Made by a program: the position numbers and the translations under genes. The notes under the pieces were generated by a model that did not search any database, was not told the DNA's origin, and saw nothing but the letters and a program-made list of their open reading frames with translations. Below are positions 1,197-27,911 of a stretch of 64,000 nucleotides of DNA, piece by piece. The DNA is from Halobacteriales archaeon QS_8_69_26 (GTDB taxonomy: Archaea > Halobacteriota > Halobacteria > Halobacteriales > SW-7-71-33), in contig PXRX01000001.1 of NCBI GenBank assembly GCA_003023195.1, positions 768 through 64,767 on the forward strand. Direction: 5' to 3'. Each line of letters begins with the position of its first letter. Position 1 is the stretch's first letter.

Positions 1197-1376
1197 TCAC
1201 CGCAAGACGAGGAGGTAGGTCGCCACCATCAGGAAGACGGTCGCCAGCGCCACGTTCGTCCAGTCGAACGGGGCGACGTTTATCACCGAGAACCCCCAGA
1301 CCACGACCGCGCTGAAGGCGAACGAGAGCACGAGGTTCATGAGAAACAGGACTCGTGGGTCGCCGTCGGAAGCCAT
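1197..1376 (-). CDS. Small two-helix membrane protein (59 aa), hypothetical
   Basis: Not in the ORF track because it is under 60 aa. ATG at 1376 and TGA at 1197-1199. Translation MASDGDPRVLFLMNLVLSFAFSAVVVWGFSVINVAPFDWTNVALATVFLMVATYLLVLR. Third codon positions are strongly G/C, like neighbouring genes, and there are two hydrophobic segments. Confidence 0.45.
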   Translation of the reverse strand: MASDGDPRVLFLMNLVLSFAFSAVVVWGFSVINVAPFDWTNVALATVFLMVATYLLVLR

Positions 1377-1516
1377 ACCGGCGGTAGGGCGTCCGGGGGC
1401 TTAGGAATGTGGGACCGGTCGGGCCGTGGCGCCGGTTCGTCTCTCGCGTGCGGGCCTGCCCCCGTCGTTTCGACACAACTAACTCGCGGTCGACGGAACT
1501 ACGTGACGAGTCACCG

Positions 1517-2665
1517 ATGAAGCTACACGAATACCAGGCCAAGGGCGTCTTCGCCGACGCGGGGATCCCCACGCCCGACTCGGAACTGGCCGAGACGGTC
1601 GAGGAGGTCGTCGCGGCGGCCGACCGGATCGGGTACCCGGTCGCGGTGAAGGCGCAGGTACAGGTGGGCGGTCGCGGCAAGGCCGGCGGGATCGAACTGG
1701 CCGACGACGAGGACGAGGCCCGGTCGGCGGCGGAGTCGATCCTGGGCATGGACCTGAAGGGCTACCACGTCGACCGGGTGCTCGTCGAGGACGCGGTCGA
1801 CTTCACGAACGAACTGTACGTCGGCGTGACGATGGACCGGGGCGAGGGCAAACCCGTCGCGATGGTCTCGACCCGCGGCGGCGTCGACATCGAGGAGGTC
1901 GCCGCCGAGGACCCCGACGCCATCGCCCGGGAGCACGTCGACCCGTCGTTCGGCCTGCACCCCTACCAGGCCCGTCGGGCGGTCTACGACGCGGGCGTCG
2001 AGGACGCCGTCGCGCGGGACGTCGCCTCGGTTCTCACCACGCTGTACCAGCTCTGGGACGGGCGCGACGGTGCCGACGCCGAGATCAACCCCCTGATGGT
2101 CACCGCCGCCGACGAGGTCGTCGCGGCCGACGCCGTCTTCAACGTCGACGAGGACGCCCTCTTCCGCCAACCGGAGATGGCCGACATGGAGGAGGAGTCG
2201 GCGTCCGGCGACGAACTCGAACGGAAGGCCGACGAGTACGGCTTCGACTACGTCCGCCTCGACGGCAACGTCGGCATCATCGGCAACGGCGCGGGCCTCG
2301 TGATGACGACCCTGGACCTGGTCGACCACTACGGCGGGGCACCCGCCAACTTCCTCGACGTGGGTGGGGGTGCCAAGGCCGAACGGGTCAGCAACGCGCT
2401 GGACATGGTGTTCTCGGACCCCAACGTCGACTCGGTCGTGTTCAACATCTTCGGCGGCATCACCCGCGGCGACGAGGTCGCCAAGGGCATCAACGCCGCC
2501 CTGGAGGGGTTCGACGAGATCCCCGACCCCGTGGTGGTCCGGCTGGCGGGCACCAACGCCGAGGAGGGCATGGAGATCCTGAACACCGACCTGGTCGAGG
2601 TGGAGTCCACGCTGGAGGACGCCGTCCAGCGTGCGGTCGAACTCGCCACGGAGGTGGAAGCATGA
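1517..2665 (+). CDS. sucC: Succinyl-CoA synthetase (ADP-forming) beta subunit
   Basis: The true start is the internal ATG at 1517 (MKLHEYQAKGVFADAGIPTP...). The 36 codons upstream in the track ORF are Arg/Pro-rich. ATP-grasp and ligase-CoA motifs are present, and the stop overlaps the sucD start (ATGA). Confidence 0.95.
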   Translation: MKLHEYQAKGVFADAGIPTPDSELAETVEEVVAAADRIGYPVAVKAQVQVGGRGKAGGIELADDEDEARSAAESILGMDLKGYHVDRVLVEDAVDFTNELYVGVTMDRGEGKPVAMVSTRGGVDIEEVAAEDPDAIAREHVDPSFGLHPYQARRAVYDAGVEDAVARDVASVLTTLYQLWDGRDGADAEINPLMVTAADEVVAADAVFNVDEDALFRQPEMADMEEESASGDELERKADEYGFDYVRLDGNVGIIGNGAGLVMTTLDLVDHYGGAPANFLDVGGGAKAERVSNALDMVFSDPNVDSVVFNIFGGITRGDEVAKGINAALEGFDEIPDPVVVRLAGTNAEEGMEILNTDLVEVESTLEDAVQRAVELATEVEA

Positions 2666-3531
2666 GCGTGCTCGTCGACGACGACACCCGGGTCGTCGTC
2701 CAGGGGATCACCGGCGGCGAGGGGAAGTTCCACGCCGAGCAGATGATGGAGTACGGCACGAACGTCGTGGCCGGCGCGGTCCCGGGCAAGGGCGGCCAGG
2801 CGGTCGCCGGCGTCCCGGTCTACGACACCGTCGAGCGTGCCGCCCGGGAACACGACGCCGACGCCTCGGTCGTGTTCGTGCCGCCGGCGTTCGCCGGCGA
2901 CGCGATATTCGAGGGGGTCGACTCCCCGCTGGACCTGGTGGTCGCCATCACCGAGGGGATCCCTGTCCAGGACATGAGCCTGGTCAACGAGAAACTGAAC
3001 GACGTCGACACCACCCTGATCGGCCCGAACTGTCCCGGCGTGATCACGCCCGGCGAGGCCAAACTCGGCATCCTCCCGGGGAACGTCTTCTCCTCCGGGT
3101 CGGTGGGGTTCGTCTCGCGGTCCGGCACGCTCACCTACCAGATCGTCGATAACCTCACGAACCGCGGCCTCGGCCAGTCGACGGCCATCGGGATCGGGGG
3201 CGACCCCATCATCGGCACCGACTTCGTCGACGCCCTGCGCCTATTCGAGGCCGACCCGGACACCGAGGTGGCGGTGATGTGCGGCGAGATCGGTGGCGAG
3301 GACGAGGAGCAGGCCGCCGAGTTCATCGACGAGCACATGGAGACGCCCGTGGTCGGCTTCATCGCCGGCCGGACCGCCCCGCCCGGCAAGCGGATGGGCC
3401 ACGCCGGCGCCATCGTCTCCGAGGCTGGCACCGGCACCGCCGAGTCGAAGATCGACGCCCTCAACGACGCCGGCGTCCACGTCGGGTACACCCCCGAGGA
3501 AGTCGCCGACCACGTCGAGAAGTACCGCTAG
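2662..3531 (+). CDS. sucD: Succinyl-CoA synthetase alpha subunit
   Basis: 289 aa. Motifs [16 protein letters not shown] and the phosphohistidine loop MGHAGAIV are present. The gene is translationally coupled to sucC. Confidence 0.95.
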
Positions 3532-16209: not shown

Positions 16210-16244
16210 CTTCCTGCGGCTCGCGGATTGCTCGCCGCAGGAAG
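16210..16244 (-). other. Perfect 11-bp stem hairpin directly abutting the tRNA-Val 3' end
   Basis: CTTCCTGCGGC (16210-16220) pairs with GCCGCAGGAAG (16234-16244) around a 13-nt loop. It starts at the first nucleotide after the tRNA discriminator base. Function (trailer processing or termination) is unknown. Confidence 0.6.
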
Positions 16245-16319
16245 TGGGTCCGGGCGGATTCGAACCACCGATCTCGGCCTTGTAAAGGCCGCGTCATACC
16301 CAGGCTAGACCACGGACCC
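16245..16319 (-). tRNA. tRNA-Val (anticodon UAC)
   Basis: The reverse complement GGGUCCGUGGUCUAGCCUGGGUAUGACGCGGCCUUUACAAGGCCGAGAUCGGUGGUUCGAAUCCGCCCGGACCCA folds by hand into a cloverleaf. The acceptor stem is 7 bp (GGGUCCG/CGGACCC). The anticodon stem is CGGCC/GGCCG with loop UUUACAA. The T-arm is GGUGG-UUCGAAU-CCGCC. CCA is not encoded. Confidence 0.9.
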
Positions 16320-19209: not shown

Positions 19210-21183
19210 ATGGCTATCGCGGACGAAGACGACGACCCGTTCGAGGAACAAAAGGAGAAGGCCGAGGCCCCGATGCGGCGGCTGTTCGCCGAGTACGGCC
19301 GGGAGAACGCCTTCCAGTTCCTGGTGGGGGTCTTCGGGAGCGTCGTCGCCCGCCTGCTGGACCTCATCCCGCCGTTCCTGCTGGGGTTCGCCATCGACGC
19401 GATCCTCCGGGACGACAAGCCGTTCACACTGCTGTTCGTCCCCGACTCGTGGACGACTGAGTTGCCCCAGGCCACACAGCTGTGGATCGCCATCGGGATC
19501 ATCGGGCTGGGCTTCTTCGGCGGCGCCGCCTTCCACTGGATCCGCAACTGGGGGTGGAACTCCTTCGCCCAGAACATCCAGCACTCCATCCGGACGGACA
19601 CCTACGACAAGATGCAGCGGCTGAACATGGACTTCTTCGCCGACAAGCAGACCGGCGAACTCATCTCCATCCTCTCGAACGACGTCAACCGCCTGGAGCG
19701 GTTCCTGAACGAGGGGATGAACTCCGCGTTCCGCCTGTCGATCATGGTGCTTGGGATCGCGGTCATCCTGTTTATCCTCAACCCGCAACTGGCGCTGGTC
19801 GCGCTGTTGCCGGTGCCGCTCATCGCACTGACGACCTACAAGTTCATCGAGATAATCCAGCCCAAGTACAAGGCGGTCCGCAAGACCGTCGGGCAGGTCA
19901 ACTCCCGGCTGGAGAACAACCTCGGCGGCATCTCGGTCATCAAGACCGCGAACACCGAGGACTACGAGTCCGACCGGGTCGACGACGTGTCCGGTGACTA
20001 CTTCGACGCCAACTGGGACGCCATCGGCACCCGGATCAAGTTCTTCCCCAGCCTCCGGATCCTGGCGGGGATCGGGTTCGTCGTCACGTTCGCCGTCGGC
20101 GGGTTCTGGGTCCTCTTCTGGGAGAACTCCCGGACTGCCCCGCTGTTCTTCTCGGGGCGGCTCACCGTCGGGGAGTTCGTCACGTTCATCCTGCTGACCC
20201 AGCGGTTCATCTGGCCGATGGCTCAGTTCGGATCCATCATCAACATGTACCAGCGGGCCTACTCCTCGGCCTCGCGGATCTTCGGGCTGATGGACGAGCC
20301 CTCCCGGATAGCCGAGGACCCCGCCGCCGAGGGACTGGCGGTCGGCCGGGGGAACGTCCGGTACGACGACGTCACCTTCGGCTACGAGGACGAGGAGACC
20401 ATCGTCGAGGACGTCACCTTCGAGGTTGACGGCGGTGACACCGTCGCGCTGGTCGGTCCGACGGGAGCCGGAAAGTCCACGGTCCTCAAACTACTGCTCA
20501 GGATGTACGACGTCGACGAGGGAGCGATCACCATCGACGGCCAGGACCTCCGCGAGGTGACCATCCCGTCGCTCCGGAAGGCCATCGGCTACGTCTCCCA
20601 GGACACGTTCCTGTTCTACGGCACCGTCGAGGAGAACATCCAGTACGGCACCTTCGGCGCCTCCCGCGAGGAAGTGGTCGAGGCCGCGAAGATGGCCGAG
20701 GCCCACGAGTTCATCACCAACCTGCCCGAGGGCTACGACACCGAGGTCGGCGAGCGCGGCGTCAAACTGTCGGGCGGCCAGCGCCAGCGCATCTCCATCG
20801 CCCGGGCCATCCTCAAGGACCCGGAGATCCTCGTCCTCGACGAGGCGACCAGCGACGTCGACACCGAGACCGAGATGCTGATCCAGCGGTCGATAAACGA
20901 CATCACCGCCGACCGGACGACCTTCGCCATCGCCCACCGCCTCTCGACCATCAAGGACGCCGACAAGATCGTCGTCCTGGAGGACGGGCGGATCGTCGAG
21001 CGTGGCACCCACGAGGAACTGCTGGACAACGACGGCCTCTACGCCAACCTCTGGGGCGTCCAGGCCGGCGAGATCGACGAACTCCCCCGGGAGTTCATCG
21101 AACGGGCCGCGCGCCGGCGCTCGCACGTCGACGTCGACGAGGACGGGATGGACGAGGTCGAACCGGAGATCCTCGACGACTGA
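19210..21183 (+). CDS. ABC exporter, fused permease/ATPase (MsbA/multidrug type)
   Basis: 657 aa. A six-helix type-I exporter domain is followed by Walker [10 protein letters not shown], signature LSGGQRQR and Walker [10 protein letters not shown]. Confidence 0.9.
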
Positions 21184-23859: not shown

Positions 23860-25101
23860 TCAGAGCCCCTCGGGGTCGACCCGCTCTATCCCGATCCGGA
23901 CGATCAGGTACGCCGCCACGCCCAGGGCGGCGTAGGCCGCGACCGCGAGGTAGGTCCCCAGGGTCGGACTGCCGATGGCTAGCTTGGCGACCGTGTTGGC
24001 CGGGTGTTCGGGCAGCAGGAAGGTCAGCGTCGCGACCGCCAGGATCGCGGTCGAGTAGAGGAACTGCGCCTGGCGGCGCTCGGGGGTCAGCAGCGAGATG
24101 CCGACCCCGACGGCGACGACTGTCGTCGAGATCCCCGCGACGAGCACCACCAGCGGGAGCCAGCCGGCGATCCGGGTGCCGTTGAGTTCCAGCAACAGGA
24201 GCCACAGCGCCGCCTGGACCGGTGCGAGCGTGGCCGTCGAGAGCATCTTGGCGTCCAGGATGGCCGCCAGGTCGACGGGCGCGCTCCGGAGCAGTTCCAG
24301 GGTGCCCCGCTGGGTCTCCTCGGTGATGGAGTCGACGGCTATCGACCCCGAGATGAACGCGGGGAGGAACATCAGTAGCGGGATCAACACCGTGTAGGTG
24401 AAGCTGAAGTAAGGGCTGGACTGGGTCCTGTCGGGCACCGACAGCGGCTCGACGTCGAGGCGGTCCTGCATGCTGTACTCCTGGCGGAGTCGCTCCTCCA
24501 TCGATTCGAGCGTCTCCCGGGTCTTGACGACGATGAGCGTCGTCCGGAGGCTCTCGCTCGGGACGATCACCACCGCCCGGATGGTACCGTCGGCGGTGTA
24601 GTTCGCGCGTATCACGACGTCGATGGCTCCGCGCTCGAAGGCGTCGGCGGTGCCGTCGGGCGACCCGAAGGTACTCGGATCGATTCCCTCCTCGCGGCTG
24701 ATCGACTCGCGAACCTCGCCGCTGGCGTTGCCGGACAGCCCGGCCTCGACGGTGAACCCCTCGACCGACCCGGGGTCGTACAGCGACACGAGGCCGACCA
24801 CGAGGAACGACGAGAACGCCGCGACGAACAGCTGGATCAGCAGGGCCAGCACGATGGTCTTCTCGCTCTTCAGCGAGGCGACCTCCCGCCGGGCGATCAC
24901 GAGCCGGGGGTCCCGCCACCACGACCTGTCGCCGTCACTGTCGTCGGGGTTGCCCGCCATCGGCGGCGGGTCCGGTCCGTCCCCGTCCAGGGGGCGCTCC
25001 ACACTACCGCCGGACGGGCCGTCGGCGTCCGGATCGTCCGGGTCGGAGGGATCGCCCCGTCCCGCGGACCCGTCTCCCGGGGGCGTGGGGTCGTCAGACA
25101 C
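23860..25101 (-). CDS. ABC-2 type transporter permease
   Basis: The GTG at 25101 overlaps the upstream stop (GTGTCTGA); an alternative ATG lies at 24960. The layout is an N-terminal TM helix, a large external loop, then the ABC-2 core ..EETQRGTLELLRSAPV... and five more helices. Confidence 0.75.
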   Translation of the reverse strand: MSDDPTPPGDGSAGRGDPSDPDDPDADGPSGGSVERPLDGDGPDPPPMAGNPDDSDGDRSWWRDPRLVIARREVASLKSEKTIVLALLIQLFVAAFSSFLVVGLVSLYDPGSVEGFTVEAGLSGNASGEVRESISREEGIDPSTFGSPDGTADAFERGAIDVVIRANYTADGTIRAVVIVPSESLRTTLIVVKTRETLESMEERLRQEYSMQDRLDVEPLSVPDRTQSSPYFSFTYTVLIPLLMFLPAFISGSIAVDSITEETQRGTLELLRSAPVDLAAILDAKMLSTATLAPVQAALWLLLLELNGTRIAGWLPLVVLVAGISTTVVAVGVGISLLTPERRQAQFLYSTAILAVATLTFLLPEHPANTVAKLAIGSPTLGTYLAVAAYAALGVAAYLIVRIGIERVDPEGL

Positions 25102-26890
25102 CGCCGACCACCGCCAGTGTCCCGAGGTTGTACGCGGCGTGGACGACCACGGCACAGACGAGTGCGACGGCGTAGGCCCGCGGTCCCCGGCGGGCACCGA
25201 ACGCGGATATCGTCGCGGTCGTCGCGTGCAACAGCAGGGGTGCCAGCAACAGTGCGGCGGCGGTCGGCCCGCCGACTGCGGCCTCCGGGACCACGGCCCC
25301 GCCGAGCGCGAGCGAAGGGAGGCCGACCACCTGGGCGACGATCATCCCCTTCTCGCCGAGGAAGAAGCCCACCCCCGAGAGAGAGCCGACGACGACCGCG
25401 ACCCGGTCGGTCCGGTCGAAGCGGGCGTGCTCGAAGCCCGCGTAGAGGTGGGCGCTCTTGGCCACCTCCTCGATGCCGGCGATGATCACGATGAGCACCG
25501 GCACCGATAGCTGGAGGGGGAGCGCGAACAGCAGTGCCACGGCGAGCAGTTCGGCGACGAACACGAACGGGATGGACAGCGCCGAGAGGAGCACGACGGA
25601 CCGCTTGCGGCGGATCCTGGCCGCCAGGGCGTCGAGCGCCTTCAGGCGAACCGACCGCTGGGTGAACATGTCTTCCTCGCGGTAGACGCCCGCTCCCAGC
25701 GCGAACAGCACCGTGGTCGCGAGGTAGAAGGGGCCGGTCGAGAAGGCGTACTCGCCCAGGGTGACCCCCGTGTTCTGGAGGTCCCGGACCACCAGGGTGA
25801 GCGGCGAGATGAGTGCGATGGGCGTTATTTCGGTGAAGATCGCCGGGACGAACGCGTAGGAGGTGAGGAACACCGAGATGGTCAGGGTCACGAAGGTGAG
25901 TTCCTTGAACGACCGGGCGAACATCGCCCCGACGAAGGTGGCCGCCAGGAACAGCGCGGCGATGGGAACGACCGCGGCCACCGACAGGGGACCGCCGCCG
26001 ATGAGGACCGCCGTTCCGACGCTGATGGCGAGCAGCGTCCCGAAGTACGGCAGGGTCTTGCCCGCGATGATGTCCCCACGACTCACCGGCGAGACCAGCA
26101 ACAGTTCCCCACGGCGGTTGATCCGCTCGTCCATTATCGTCGACCCGTAGGCCTGGATGACGAAGTTCATCGGGACGATGAACAGGAAGGCGAGCACGAG
26201 CGACCCGAACGGGAACGGGGGCTGGATCGACGAGGGGGTCCCCTCGCTTGCCTCGGCGTTCCCGCCGCCCAGGTTCGGGATCCCGAGCGGACCGCCGCCG
26301 CCCCCGCCGCCCCCGTCGCCGCCCCCGTTGCCGCCGCCACCACCGCCCCCATTGCCGCCGTCGCCGCCGCCACCGCCGCCGGTGCCCCCGCCGGGCACCT
26401 CCCGGACGGTCACCCGGGACCGGAACCGGACCGACACGTCGACGGGGAAGGCCGCGGCCGGGTCGCTGCCGCGCTCGGCCGCCGCCTGCATCGCCCGGTC
26501 GTTGTGGGCCTGGATCGACCGCCGGAACGCCGAGTAGGCCGCCCGTCCCTTCGGCGTGCTCCGGTGGACGACCAGGGTCCCCCGGACGAGTACGTCGACG
26601 CTCTCGGGCATCTCGCCGTCGGCCAGGGCGTCGTCCGGGACGTCGACCGCGACGAACTTCGGGTCGTCCTCGACGACGTTGTGGTACCGGCTTCGCTCGT
26701 CGACGCCGACCCGGTAGATACCCTCGTCGACGGTGACGCCGCCGCTCAGGACCGCGGGACCGACCAGCAACGCGAGCATCGCCCCGACCAGCGCCAGGAC
26801 GAGGGTTCGGCCCTTGACCTGCCCGGCCGTCTCGGTCAGTTCCCACCGGGCGATCCGGGCGACCTTCCGCGGGTCGATCCGGCCGATCAC
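25094..26890 (-). CDS. ABC-2 type permease fused to a C-terminal PrsW-like intramembrane protease domain, with a poly-Gly tract in the external loop
   Basis: 598 aa with a GTG start. The N-terminal part is ABC-2 permease-like (..MDERINRRGELLLVSPVSRGDIIAGK..). The last ~190 aa carry GIEEVAKS (EExxK), LLLHATT and VVHAAYN (HxxxN), as in PrsW/CPBP-type proteases. Confidence 0.75.
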   Translation of the reverse strand: MIGRIDPRKVARIARWELTETAGQVKGRTLVLALVGAMLALLVGPAVLSGGVTVDEGIYRVGVDERSRYHNVVEDDPKFVAVDVPDDALADGEMPESVDVLVRGTLVVHRSTPKGRAAYSAFRRSIQAHNDRAMQAAAERGSDPAAAFPVDVSVRFRSRVTVREVPGGGTGGGGGGDGGNGGGGGGGNGGGDGGGGGGGGPLGIPNLGGGNAEASEGTPSSIQPPFPFGSLVLAFLFIVPMNFVIQAYGSTIMDERINRRGELLLVSPVSRGDIIAGKTLPYFGTLLAISVGTAVLIGGGPLSVAAVVPIAALFLAATFVGAMFARSFKELTFVTLTISVFLTSYAFVPAIFTEITPIALISPLTLVVRDLQNTGVTLGEYAFSTGPFYLATTVLFALGAGVYREEDMFTQRSVRLKALDALAARIRRKRSVVLLSALSIPFVFVAELLAVALLFALPLQLSVPVLIVIIAGIEEVAKSAHLYAGFEHARFDRTDRVAVVVGSLSGVGFFLGEKGMIVAQVVGLPSLALGGAVVPEAAVGGPTAAALLLAPLLLHATTATISAFGARRGPRAYAVALVCAVVVHAAYNLGTLAVVGGV

Positions 26891-27023
26891 GCCCGGGTCC
26901 CCTCCAGTCGCTCCCGCGGTTCCCCTGGTTCTGCCCGATCCCGGCGGGCTCGTTCCGGTCCCTCCCTTTCCCCCTCCCGGTCGGGACGGGATCCCTCCAG
27001 CCCGGTGCGGGTCCCCCTACCCG

Positions 27024-27911
27024 TCACGTCTCCGCCTCCCCGGTCGGGGTTTCGTCCGCGATGTCGAGGAATATTTCCTCCAGGCTCGGCTCCTCGGTTC
27101 GGATGTCGGTGACTTCGCCGCCCCGGTCGGCCGCCAGTCCCCTGGTCTCCTCGACTGCGCCCATGTCGTCGACGACGCGCTTGTAGCGGCCGTTCTCGCG
27201 GACCGCCTCGGGAACGTCGACGGTGGTGTAGACGTGGTACTCGGTCGTCCCGTGGCGGTCGCGGATCTCTTCGAGGGTGCCCCGGGCGATGATCCGCCCG
27301 CGGTTCATGACGATGACCCGGTCGCAGATGGACTCGACGTGGTAGAGGTTGTGGGCGCTGAACACGACGGTCTTGCTCCGGTCGCTGAGTTCGCGGGTGA
27401 AGTCGATGATGTAGTTCGTCGTCAGCGGGTCCAGCCCCGAGGCGGGTTCGTCGAACACCAGCACGTCGGGGTCGTTGACCAGCGACCGGGCGATGGCGAC
27501 CTTCCGCTTCATCCCCTTGGACATGTCCCCGATCTTCCGCGACCGGTGGTCCAGGTCCAACCGGTCCAGGGCGTCGTCGATGCGGTCGGTGGCGACCGAC
27601 CGCGGCACGTCGTAGAGGTCGGCGAAAAAGGTCAGGTAGGAGGTGGCGGTCATCTCCTCGTAGAGCGGTGACTCCTCGGGGAGGAACCCGAGGTTGCGCC
27701 TGGTCTCGGGGTCGTCCGTCGCCCGGCCACCCACCCGGGCGGTGCCGCTCGTCGGTTCGACCAGGCCGGCGAGCATCTTCAGCGTCGTCGTCTTGCCGGC
27801 CCCGTTCGGGCCGACCACCCCGAACACCTCCCCCGGTTCCACCGTGAAGGTGCTCCCCTCGACGGCCACGAAGTCGCCGTACTCCTTCCGAAGGTCCTCG
27901 ACTTCGATCAT
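27024..27911 (-). CDS. ABC transporter ATP-binding protein (ABC-2/NatA type)
   Basis: 295 aa. Walker A GPNGAGKTT, signature MSKGMKRKV and Walker B VLVFDEPASGLD are present. It is the first gene of a three-gene minus-strand operon. Confidence 0.9.
   Translation of the reverse strand: MIEVEDLRKEYGDFVAVEGSTFTVEPGEVFGVVGPNGAGKTTTLKMLAGLVEPTSGTARVGGRATDDPETRRNLGFLPEESPLYEEMTATSYLTFFADLYDVPRSVATDRIDDALDRLDLDHRSRKIGDMSKGMKRKVAIARSLVNDPDVLVFDEPASGLDPLTTNYIIDFTRELSDRSKTVVFSAHNLYHVESICDRVIVMNRGRIIARGTLEEIRDRHGTTEYHVYTTVDVPEAVRENGRYKRVVDDMGAVEETRGLAADRGGEVTDIRTEEPSLEEIFLDIADETPTGEAET

Follow-up and report, generated by a model that had tools for sequence, protein, structure and literature searches.

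A conserved archaeal fusion of an ABC-2 permease and a predicted PrsW-family intramembrane protease

Introduction

What would an archaeon do with a transporter permease and an intramembrane protease joined in a single polypeptide? The question is raised by a stretch of 64,000 nt from the Halobacteriales archaeon QS_8_69_26 (contig PXRX01000001.1, positions 768 to 64,767, forward strand), which we call the window; its G+C content is ~69% and its proteome is acidic. Three adjacent genes on the minus strand encode an ATP-binding cassette (ABC) ATPase, a 598-aa protein and a second permease of the ABC-2 type. The 598-aa protein, hereafter the fusion, consists of an ABC-2 permease (the N-domain), a linker and a C-terminal domain (the C-domain) with the motifs of PrsW-type intramembrane proteases.

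Archaeal PrsW-like proteases are listed as uncharacterized, ‘function unknown’ (PMC9263693, PMC4343526), and our literature search found no paper on an ABC-2/PrsW fusion. A survey of PrsW architectures reports fusions to toxins, signaling domains and DUF2324, and its PrsW passages mention no ABC permease (PMC3482391).

Here, we describe the fusion, its partner genes and its distribution, and weigh what the combination may be for. We are confident that its gene is the central one of three that encode a conserved archaeal ABC-2 (type V) exporter, and that one of the two permeases, the fusion, carries a minimal PrsW-family protease. How the two halves might work together is a more tentative matter.

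The fusion gene is real and conserved

The open reading frame (ORF) of the fusion starts with GTG and was confirmed in the ORF listing of the window, position 26890 being the furthest-upstream start in the open frame. Over the full length, its product shows 100% identity to a protein of the same archaeon in GenBank, which NCBI has named "PrsW family intramembrane metalloprotease". A first-pass annotation, made by a model from the letters of the window, had reported the ORF, the three-gene operon and the union of an ABC-2 permease with a protease of the PrsW/CPBP superfamily. All three are present as it described them and are conserved, and the motifs that it quoted (GELLLVSPVSRGDIIAGK, GIEEVAKS, LLLHATT and VVHAAYN) are all found in the protein.

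It had also left for later the question of whether fusion or mere adjacency is the conserved state. From a genome scan limited to one genome per species, we retrieved 80 haloarchaeal loci for neighborhood comparison, and the answer is the fusion itself: the N- and C-domains share one open frame at 79 of the 80 loci, and the lone exception ends at a contig edge. The order ATPase, N-domain, C-domain, second permease is constant at the loci with enough flank. The ATPase gene lies directly upstream of the fusion in every one of these, and the second permease gene follows immediately 3' of it in 80/80 loci and in all of the distant contigs described below. The C-domain is encoded in at least 377 species genomes and, among the matches listed, all are Halobacteria except one evidently mis-binned metagenome-assembled genome (MAG).

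With more than 1,600 database homologs, this breadth of haloarchaeal species, an NCBI name already in place and a bacterial parallel in NCBIfam (NF041647, discussed at the end), the description of the gene as ‘unusual’ was an overstatement.

A profile of the haloarchaeal C-domain, searched against 1.84 billion (1.84e9) representatives, retrieves 190 clusters, nearly all of which are either proteins of 540-680 aa with the domain at the C-terminus or fragments. The short matches start with the linker (‘...YREEDMFTQ...’ or ‘...NEE.LFS...’) and derive, as fragments, from short contigs; a stand-alone form of the C-domain was rejected on that account. Canonical stand-alone PrsW proteins were not reached by this profile at E<=0.001. 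Judged from these searches, the C-domain appears to exist essentially only as a fusion to an ABC-2 permease.

Beyond the Halobacteria, nine divergent members, full-length and 19-41% identical, were combined into a profile, which picks up a large clade of Thermoplasmatota proteins of 450-610 aa, most of them annotated ‘hypothetical protein’ or ‘Na+ efflux pump permease’, and one cluster includes a Nitrososphaerales MAG. We read six distant contigs, Thermoplasmatota among them: ATPase, fusion and second permease are adjacent in five of them, with the ATPase divergently oriented in three, and in the sixth (L086) the fusion and the second permease are adjacent, no ATPase being identified at the contig end.

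The protease domain

Residue conservation in the fusion was assessed on 118 haloarchaeal homologs. According to two AlphaFold2 (AF2) models, one of the full-length protein and one of the domain alone, the C-domain has one leading transmembrane (TM) helix followed by a four-helix catalytic core, all between residues 431 and 596. The domain-only model has a predicted local distance difference test score (pLDDT) of 90 and a predicted template modeling score (pTM) of 0.86.

Each core helix carries one motif (Table 1). The aligned Glu and Lys of motif 1 (EExxK, depth 0.54-0.68 on its helix, from the outer face) are invariant in the nine most divergent members as well. Motif 2 (G-F509-F510-x-x-E513-K514), which the first-pass annotation had missed, is invariant, with its Phe and Glu kept in distant members. 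H555 of motif 3 corresponds to the extra His that separates PrsW from CAAX proteases (PMC4602095). For motif 4 the codons themselves were read (cac gcc gcg tac aac). Across the C-terminal region, invariance is seen at E474, E475, A477, K478 and S479; G506, F509, F510, E513 and K514; L554 and H555; and H584, Y587 and N588.

The catalytic residues sit 0.27-0.68 of the way down their helices, measured from the outer face, and the site is therefore intramembrane and biased to the outer leaflet. The alignment of the nine divergent full-length members keeps just 15 columns invariant, 8 of them occupied by protease-motif residues; this indicates strong selection on the catalytic site. The PrsW-type site of the fusion is thus apparently catalytic.

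To which family the domain belongs is less easily said. Scanned directly against Pfam and NCBIfam, the C-terminus of the window protein gave no match. Seven members of the family, in contrast, pass the curated cutoff of 23.5 bits for PF13367 (PrsW-protease): P0213 (36.5 bits), P0260 (30.8), P0220 (25.8), P0257 (25.2), P0057 (24.8), P0071 (23.8) and P0161 (23.6). Six of the seven matches run from model position ~5-15 to ~173-178 of 196, and that of P0257, a truncated fragment, covers positions 7-108. The haloarchaeal C-domain profile retrieves all seven with E-values of 1e-9 to 1e-37. When the haloarchaeal alignment was compared by hhalign with the distant PF13367-passing members, the two aligned across 171 columns at a probability of 99.8% (E=3.6e-29), and the four motifs of both groups fell in register.

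The hidden Markov model domain call that the first-pass annotation had recommended therefore fails for the window's C-terminus and succeeds for its relatives. That annotation would have given up its reading if the region had no PrsW/CPBP profile hit; this is literally the case for the window sequence and is not the case for its family. The PrsW assignment is accordingly valid at the family level only, because the window's own sequence misses the Pfam model.

The published signature of PrsW is EExxK, an extra His and HxxxD, and that of Rce1 is EExxxR and HxxxN (PMC4602095). PrsW is further described, in PMC3482391, as having four conserved motifs on consecutive TM helices and, in most representatives, about eight TM helices. 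In the fusion, EExxK lies within a TM helix and a further conserved His on the helix that precedes the final motif, so the earlier reading of its motifs as PrsW-like agrees with the published signature (PMC4602095). The fusion lacks HxxxD, having the Rce1-type HxxxN instead, and its C-domain has five TM helices rather than about eight. Because two PrsW-specific features are combined with HxxxN, we speak of a hybrid signature.

CPBP/Rce1 (PF02517, cutoff 22.4 bits) does not match the window protein; one relative, P0220, reaches 15.4 bits (E=0.023) and so stays under the cutoff. Of the CPBP motifs, HxxxN is present, EExxK replaces EExxxR, and F509-x-x-x-E513 stands in place of FxxxH, reportedly CPBP motif 2. 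We have filed the domain, from its motifs and profile matches, as a putative divergent and minimal PrsW subfamily within the Rce1/CPBP/APH-1 superfamily; APH-1 is treated as a recognized distant relative within this superfamily (PMC4602095, PMC3482391).

The permease half and the linker

The full-length AF2 model, built on 118 homologs, has a mean pLDDT of 81 and a pTM of 0.71. It places a cytoplasmic N-terminal helix at residues 7-24, with R12-E17 conserved, and TM1 at 27-49. Between TM1 and TM2 lies an external domain with AF2 strands and helices at 59-147 (pLDDT mostly >80), whose conserved residues include Y59, R60, V63, K114, A117, A118, R123, N130 and A146-V150. It is followed by a Gly-rich insert (GGGTGGGGGGDGGNGGGGGGGNGGGDGGGGGGGG...), the length and composition of which differ widely among homologs; in non-halophilic relatives the equivalent stretch is rich in Ser, Thr and Asp. 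The insert may serve as a flexible tether or a glycosylation region.

Five further TM helices are found at 228-402. This ABC-2 core carries the cytoplasmic coupling-region motif E255-R-x-x-x-R-G-E-L-L-L-V-S-P and an invariant loop, M323-FARSFKELTF, one of the best-conserved stretches of the whole protein. Residues 230-399 are those matched by PF12698; the same model is matched by 23/24 relatives at E<=1 (best 4.2e-8), and several distant members score above the PF12698/PF12679 cutoffs. A Foldseek search of the Protein Data Bank (PDB) with the full-length model returned only weak matches, to ABC-2, ABCG, ABCA and NosY exporters.

The layout of an ABC-2 type V exporter is found: six TM helices, TM1 and TM2 being separated by a large external domain, and cytoplasmic module termini (from AF2 and the positive-inside count). 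The gene also stands beside that of a cognate ABC ATPase with intact catalytic motifs. In calling this half a ‘NatB-type permease’, the first-pass annotation applied what is only a COG-style label; the Pfam ABC-2 scores of the fusion fall below the curated cutoffs.

The linker that joins the halves has nine Lys and Arg residues in segment 403-430, and Y403, R404, E405, D407, F409, Q411, K417 and D420 are invariant. An ‘xEExLF’ junction also occurs in distant family members. The fusion is predicted to have 11 TM helices, its N-terminus lying inside and its C-terminus outside; on this topology the short loops hold 19 Lys plus Arg inside vs 1 outside.

The operon partners

The best NCBIfam match of the 295-aa ATPase is the drrA subfamily model TIGR01188 (3e-72). 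Its Walker A (GPNGAGKT), Walker B (LVFDEP) and H-loop are present, and the canonical Walker A, Walker B (DEP) and H-loop are kept family-wide (72 loci). The signature motif reads MSKGM instead of LSGGQ. This xSKGM variant is found in all 72 haloarchaeal loci that cover the region, and related variants occur in 4/5 of the distant-contig ATPases (FSKGM twice, LSKGL and LSNGM), with none found in L081.

Counted from GTG 25101, the second permease is 413 aa long, or 366 aa if ATG 24960 is taken as the start instead. Its TM1 is followed by an external domain and five further TM helices, and a protease domain is absent. Its first ~62 aa are rich in Asp, Pro and Gly (16 D, 13 P, 0 K) and are not conserved, homolog alignments starting at about residue 63. 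Recent paralogy between the second permease and the N-domain of the fusion was rejected (BLASTP E=0.32).

The junction between the fusion and second-permease genes overlaps, whereas a 133-nt spacer parts the ATPase gene from the fusion gene. The overlap, between the TGA stop of the fusion and the GTG start of the second permease, is 8 nt and would fit translational coupling; overlapping stop/start junctions recur at the distant loci L081, L082, L085 and L087.

Table 1. Features of the fusion operon and of other elements of the window (positions in the window; M, method or supporting match)
Feature	Position	Strand	M
Fusion protein, 598 aa: ABC-2 permease, linker and PrsW-family intramembrane protease domain	25094..26890	-	
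Residues 1-49: cytoplasmic N-terminal helix (RIARWE, nearly invariant) and TM1	26744..26890	-	AF2
Residues 50-155: folded external alpha/beta domain, TM1-TM2	26426..26743	-	AF2
Residues 156-222: disordered Gly-rich low-complexity insert, external loop	26225..26425	-	pLDDT <50
Residues 223-402: ABC-2 core, TM2-TM6	25685..26224	-	PF12698, AF2, Foldseek
Residues 403-430: cytoplasmic linker	25601..25684	-	Near-invariant Y403-R-E-E-D-M-F-T-Q-R, then amphipathic Lys/Arg-rich helix
Residues 431-598: PrsW-family protease domain, five TM helices, C-terminus outside	25097..25600	-	
Motif 1, E474-E475-V-A-K478 (EExxK), TM8, mid-membrane	25457..25471	-	Invariant, 118 homologs
Motif 2, F509-F510-L-G-E513-K514, TM9	25349..25366	-	F509, F510, E513, K514 invariant
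Motif 3, H555 (L-H-x-x-T), TM10	25226..25228	-	Invariant, distant members too
Motif 4, H584-A-A-Y587-N588 (HxxYN), TM11	25127..25141	-	H, Y, N invariant, distant members too
ABC ATPase, 295 aa, DrrA/ABC-2-type nucleotide-binding subunit	27024..27911	-	PF00005 E=1.5e-31, PF13732 DrrA1-3_C
ATPase signature motif, residues 131-135	27507-27521	-	
Intergenic spacer ATPase/fusion, 133 nt, purine-rich (GGGAGG-type)	26891..27023	-	Sequence read
Second ABC-2 permease	23860..25101	-	PF12698 6e-15, PF12679 6e-10
N-terminal ~62 aa of second permease	24916-25101	-	
Stop/start overlap, fusion and second permease	25094-25101	-	
657-aa ORF	19210-21183	+	
tRNA-Val (anticodon TAC)	16244-16319	-	ARAGORN, Rfam gathering thresholds

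Genomic context

None of the window's neighboring genes recurs beside the operon at the other loci. When flanking ORFs of at least 90 aa were clustered de novo (shorter ORFs were not systematically searched), at most 26/80 loci shared one, and this cluster looks like lineage-local synteny. The conserved unit is exactly three genes, without a dedicated substrate, regulator or maturation gene. A scan for promoters and terminators was uninformative, its consensus sequences being bacterial.

About 2.7 kb from the operon, the window holds a 657-aa ORF with a hydrophobic N-terminal half and a C-terminal ABC ATPase half, which from its translation looks like a fused half-transporter. It is not recurrent beside the operon, and its matches elsewhere fall on the operon's own ATPase gene. 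The sole RNA gene found in the 64 kb is a tRNA-Val.

Some records of the family call for comment. Haladaptatus salinisoli has a copy of the operon on a 540-kb replicon annotated as a plasmid (L028; NZ_CP085330.1, plasmid unnamed3). Typical archaeal fusion copies appear under the labels ‘uncultured Bacteroidetes bacterium’ (L043, a MAG, CAJXLK010000024.1) and ‘[bacterium]’ (P0370), and in both cases the source record has probably been mis-binned or given the wrong taxonomy. In L086, the public 640-aa gene call at 1331-3253 (P0265) has an N-terminal extension of ~280 aa unlike anything in the family, probably an over-extended start. The neighbors there look bacterial (a GerE/TPR/NB-ARC regulator, an SCO4226-like protein and DUF1264), so that the family may extend outside the Archaea, or else the contig may be a chimera.

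What the fusion may do

The typical cargo of ABC-2 exporters built from two different permeases, such as LanFEG, SagGHI and PmtABCD, is amphipathic peptides or lipids. We propose that the three proteins would assemble as (ATPase)2-fusion-permease2. Hydrophobic or amphipathic peptide segments resident in the membrane would reach the tethered protease site laterally and be cleaved there, and ATP-driven movements of the ABC-2 dimer would feed a segment into the site or expel the products, cleavage and clearance being coupled. Candidate substrates would be remnants of signal peptides or C-terminal anchors, lipid-anchored precursors, and foreign membrane-active peptides. We regard this cut-and-expel mechanism as possible, at somewhat short of an even chance. 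Much the same idea, ‘substrate extraction or export linked to cleavage’, was voiced in the first-pass annotation and seems to us a reasonable one.

The coupling of an ABC transporter to intramembrane proteolysis has a precedent, since in Bacillus subtilis the protease RasP, which acts after PrsW in the same cascade, depends on EcsAB for its activity (PMC7478892, citing Heinrich 2008). The wide, mostly vertical distribution of the family, together with the lack of a dedicated substrate gene in the conserved unit, suggests a housekeeping membrane role rather than specialized biosynthesis.

In its boldest form, the proposal would be an ATP-powered intramembrane protease of the core archaeal housekeeping set, in which the ABC-2 heterodimer presents TM or lipid-anchored segments to the tethered PrsW-type site and expels the fragments; this we consider doubtful. 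Such an enzyme might clear away what is left of signal peptides or PGF-CTERM anchors, or it might be the archaeal lipoprotein signal peptidase, which is listed as still to be identified (PMC12462473).

Several observations count against our interpretation. On the protease side, neither the C-terminal 182 aa of the window protein nor the whole protein matches PF13367, even at E<=10. Foldseek gave no significant match of the domain model to a solved structure: the best superposition in the PDB is APH-1 (template modeling score 0.43-0.46, E about 2), and Rce1 is absent from the 50 matches listed. A sequence profile searched against all PDB chains returned nothing at E<=10. The argument for catalysis is purely one of conservation, and APH-1 shows that superfamily members can be non-catalytic scaffolds. 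On the permease side, the whole fusion scores 18 bits on PF12698 against a curated 31.6; the N-domain alone scores 27.1 vs 27.2 bits on PF12679 and 24.5 vs 31.6 on PF12698. The lateral hand-off between the permease and protease halves is conjecture. Taking the identity of the gene and the cut-and-expel mechanism jointly, we put the whole at about even.

Among the other explanations, the one that survives best is signaling, though it is unlikely. Here the PrsW-like domain would be the site-1 protease of an archaeal regulated-intramembrane-proteolysis cascade and the ABC-2 module its sensor or gate: a membrane-bound regulator would be cut in its external or juxtamembrane part, a site-2 protease (S2P) would finish the work, and the transport cycle would be loaded by, for example, an envelope stressor. 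The outer-leaflet bias of the active site would suit such a cut. In the one role characterized for PrsW, it makes the site-1 cut in RsiW when the cell meets antimicrobial peptides and envelope stress (PMC4602095, PMC3482391), and EcsAB regulates the next protease of that cascade (PMC7478892). In Haloferax volcanii, the ‘PrsW-like’ HVO_0408 and the S2P HVO_1870 are both up in a rhomboid mutant, and a possible functional link has been raised (PMC9263693, the one review found to mention HVO_0408). HVO_0408, however, is not confirmed as the ortholog of the fusion, and the 90% clusters of the fusion's close Haloferax orthologs do not include H. volcanii. Neither a regulator nor an S2P gene is among the conserved neighbors of the operon, although a dedicated substrate would usually leave genomic linkage. 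To our knowledge, archaea have no sigma/anti-sigma pairs.

Immunity or detoxification ranks next and is rather improbable. A LanFEG/Lnr-like exporter would remove membrane-active peptides (halocins and the like) or lipophilic toxins, and a fused Abi/CPBP-like protease would inactivate them. Transporters for lantibiotic protection and linearmycin resistance likewise combine one ATPase with two different ABC-2 permeases. The ATPase scores 1.2e-42 on a lantibiotic-protection ATPase model and 1.4e-32 on PmtA, but these matches are generic and all far under the curated cutoffs, the best match being DrrA. The second permease weakly matches SagH, and CPBP/Abi proteins recur as bacteriocin immunity or processing factors (PMC9263693). 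Against this stand the near-universal, largely vertical distribution in Halobacteria and Thermoplasmatota and the lack of linkage to bacteriocin genes, two-component sensors or mobile elements. No PADLOC defense model matches either permease, and a role in anti-phage defense was rejected on the same result.

A plain Na+ or small-molecule efflux pump of the NatAB kind, in which the C-terminal domain would be a structural, non-catalytic APH-1-like scaffold, is very unlikely. Many homologs are labeled ‘ABC-type Na+ efflux pump permease subunit’ by JGI, but this label is a transfer from COG1668 and a matter of source annotation only. The best structural superpositions of the C-domain are with non-catalytic APH-1; its Glu/Glu/Lys, Glu, His and His/Asn, however, are invariant down to 19% identity and make up the 8 motif columns counted above, which would not be expected of a mere scaffold. 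The weakest alternative, that two neighboring genes were merged through a sequencing, assembly or frameshift error, can draw on the source genome being a MAG, and its chance is negligible: the continuous frame recurs in 79/80 independent genomes, complete chromosomes included, and in six distant contigs, the junction peptide YREEDMFTQR ranks among the most conserved segments of the protein, and the conserved gene order and shared frame across loci refute it.

What is new

The gene itself is ordinary within its large family, to which automatic annotation has already given a name. As a whole, the family is an undescribed variant: an archaeal PrsW-type protease, obligatorily fused to an ABC-2 permease, with a hybrid signature and a minimal core. 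The ‘Na+ efflux pump’ label of JGI and the ‘PrsW metalloprotease’ label of NCBI each cover half of the protein.

For specialists in membrane proteolysis or the archaeal envelope, we would call the family a useful and testable lead, not a surprise. It offers a route to the role of PrsW-type proteases in archaea and to archaeal membrane-proteolysis enzymes that are as yet unassigned, such as the lipoprotein signal peptidase. It also offers one to the control of an intramembrane protease by an ABC transporter, where the mechanism of EcsAB-RasP has been unexplained since 2008 and a natural obligatory fusion is more tractable than two separate proteins. The family occurs in Haloferax species, and H. 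volcanii is genetically tractable. If the protease should prove inert, or the pump ordinary, the finding would shrink to an annotation note.

Comparison with known systems

The closest likeness of the C-domain is to PrsW (YpdC) of B. subtilis (PF13367/MEROPS M82), with which it shares EExxK on a TM helix and the additional His (PMC4602095), the arrangement of four motifs on consecutive TM helices (PMC3482391) and, through other family members, a score above the Pfam cutoff. Unlike PrsW, it is archaeal and would thus have no sigma/anti-sigma substrate; it has 5 TM helices vs ~8 and HxxxN in place of HxxxD, and always follows an ABC-2 permease, not being seen alone. With Rce1/CPBP (type II CAAX prenyl protease, PF02517), a family in which Methanococcus maripaludis Rce1 has a solved structure, it has in common a predicted four-helix core, the Glu-Glu pair, HxxxN and the intramembrane Glu/His site (PMC4602095); it differs in having EExxK where Rce1 has EExxxR, in the extra His and in not matching PF02517. 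APH-1 gives the best superposition among solved structures, yet it is non-catalytic, while the catalytic residues of the fusion are invariant.

As a transporter, the operon resembles the heterodimeric ABC-2 exporters LanFEG, SagGHI, LnrLMN and the NatAB-like systems of COG1668, with the same three-gene layout, a DrrA-like ATPase and the same plan of permease TM helices. These exporters have no protease domain, and the similarity scores are far under their family cutoffs. The CPBP protein SagE, for its part, has a gene of its own in the streptolysin S operon.

EcsAB-RasP of B. subtilis is likewise a case of an ABC transporter tied to the activity of an intramembrane protease (PMC7478892). There, the partners are separate proteins, and RasP is an S2P metalloprotease, not a PrsW.

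The architecture is most nearly repeated in the bacterial family NCBIfam NF041647, ‘ABC transporter permease subunit/CPBP intramembrane protease’, which has the same domain order and a similar length (636 model positions), and whose existence means that this kind of fusion is already cataloged. Membership of NF041647 was rejected: the fusion scores 11 bits, the second permease 24 and ten relatives <=8.2, against a cutoff of 435, and the weak matches cover the permease part only. The protease is of the CPBP type there and of the PrsW type in the archaeal fusion, and the two look like products of independent origin or of a very ancient split.

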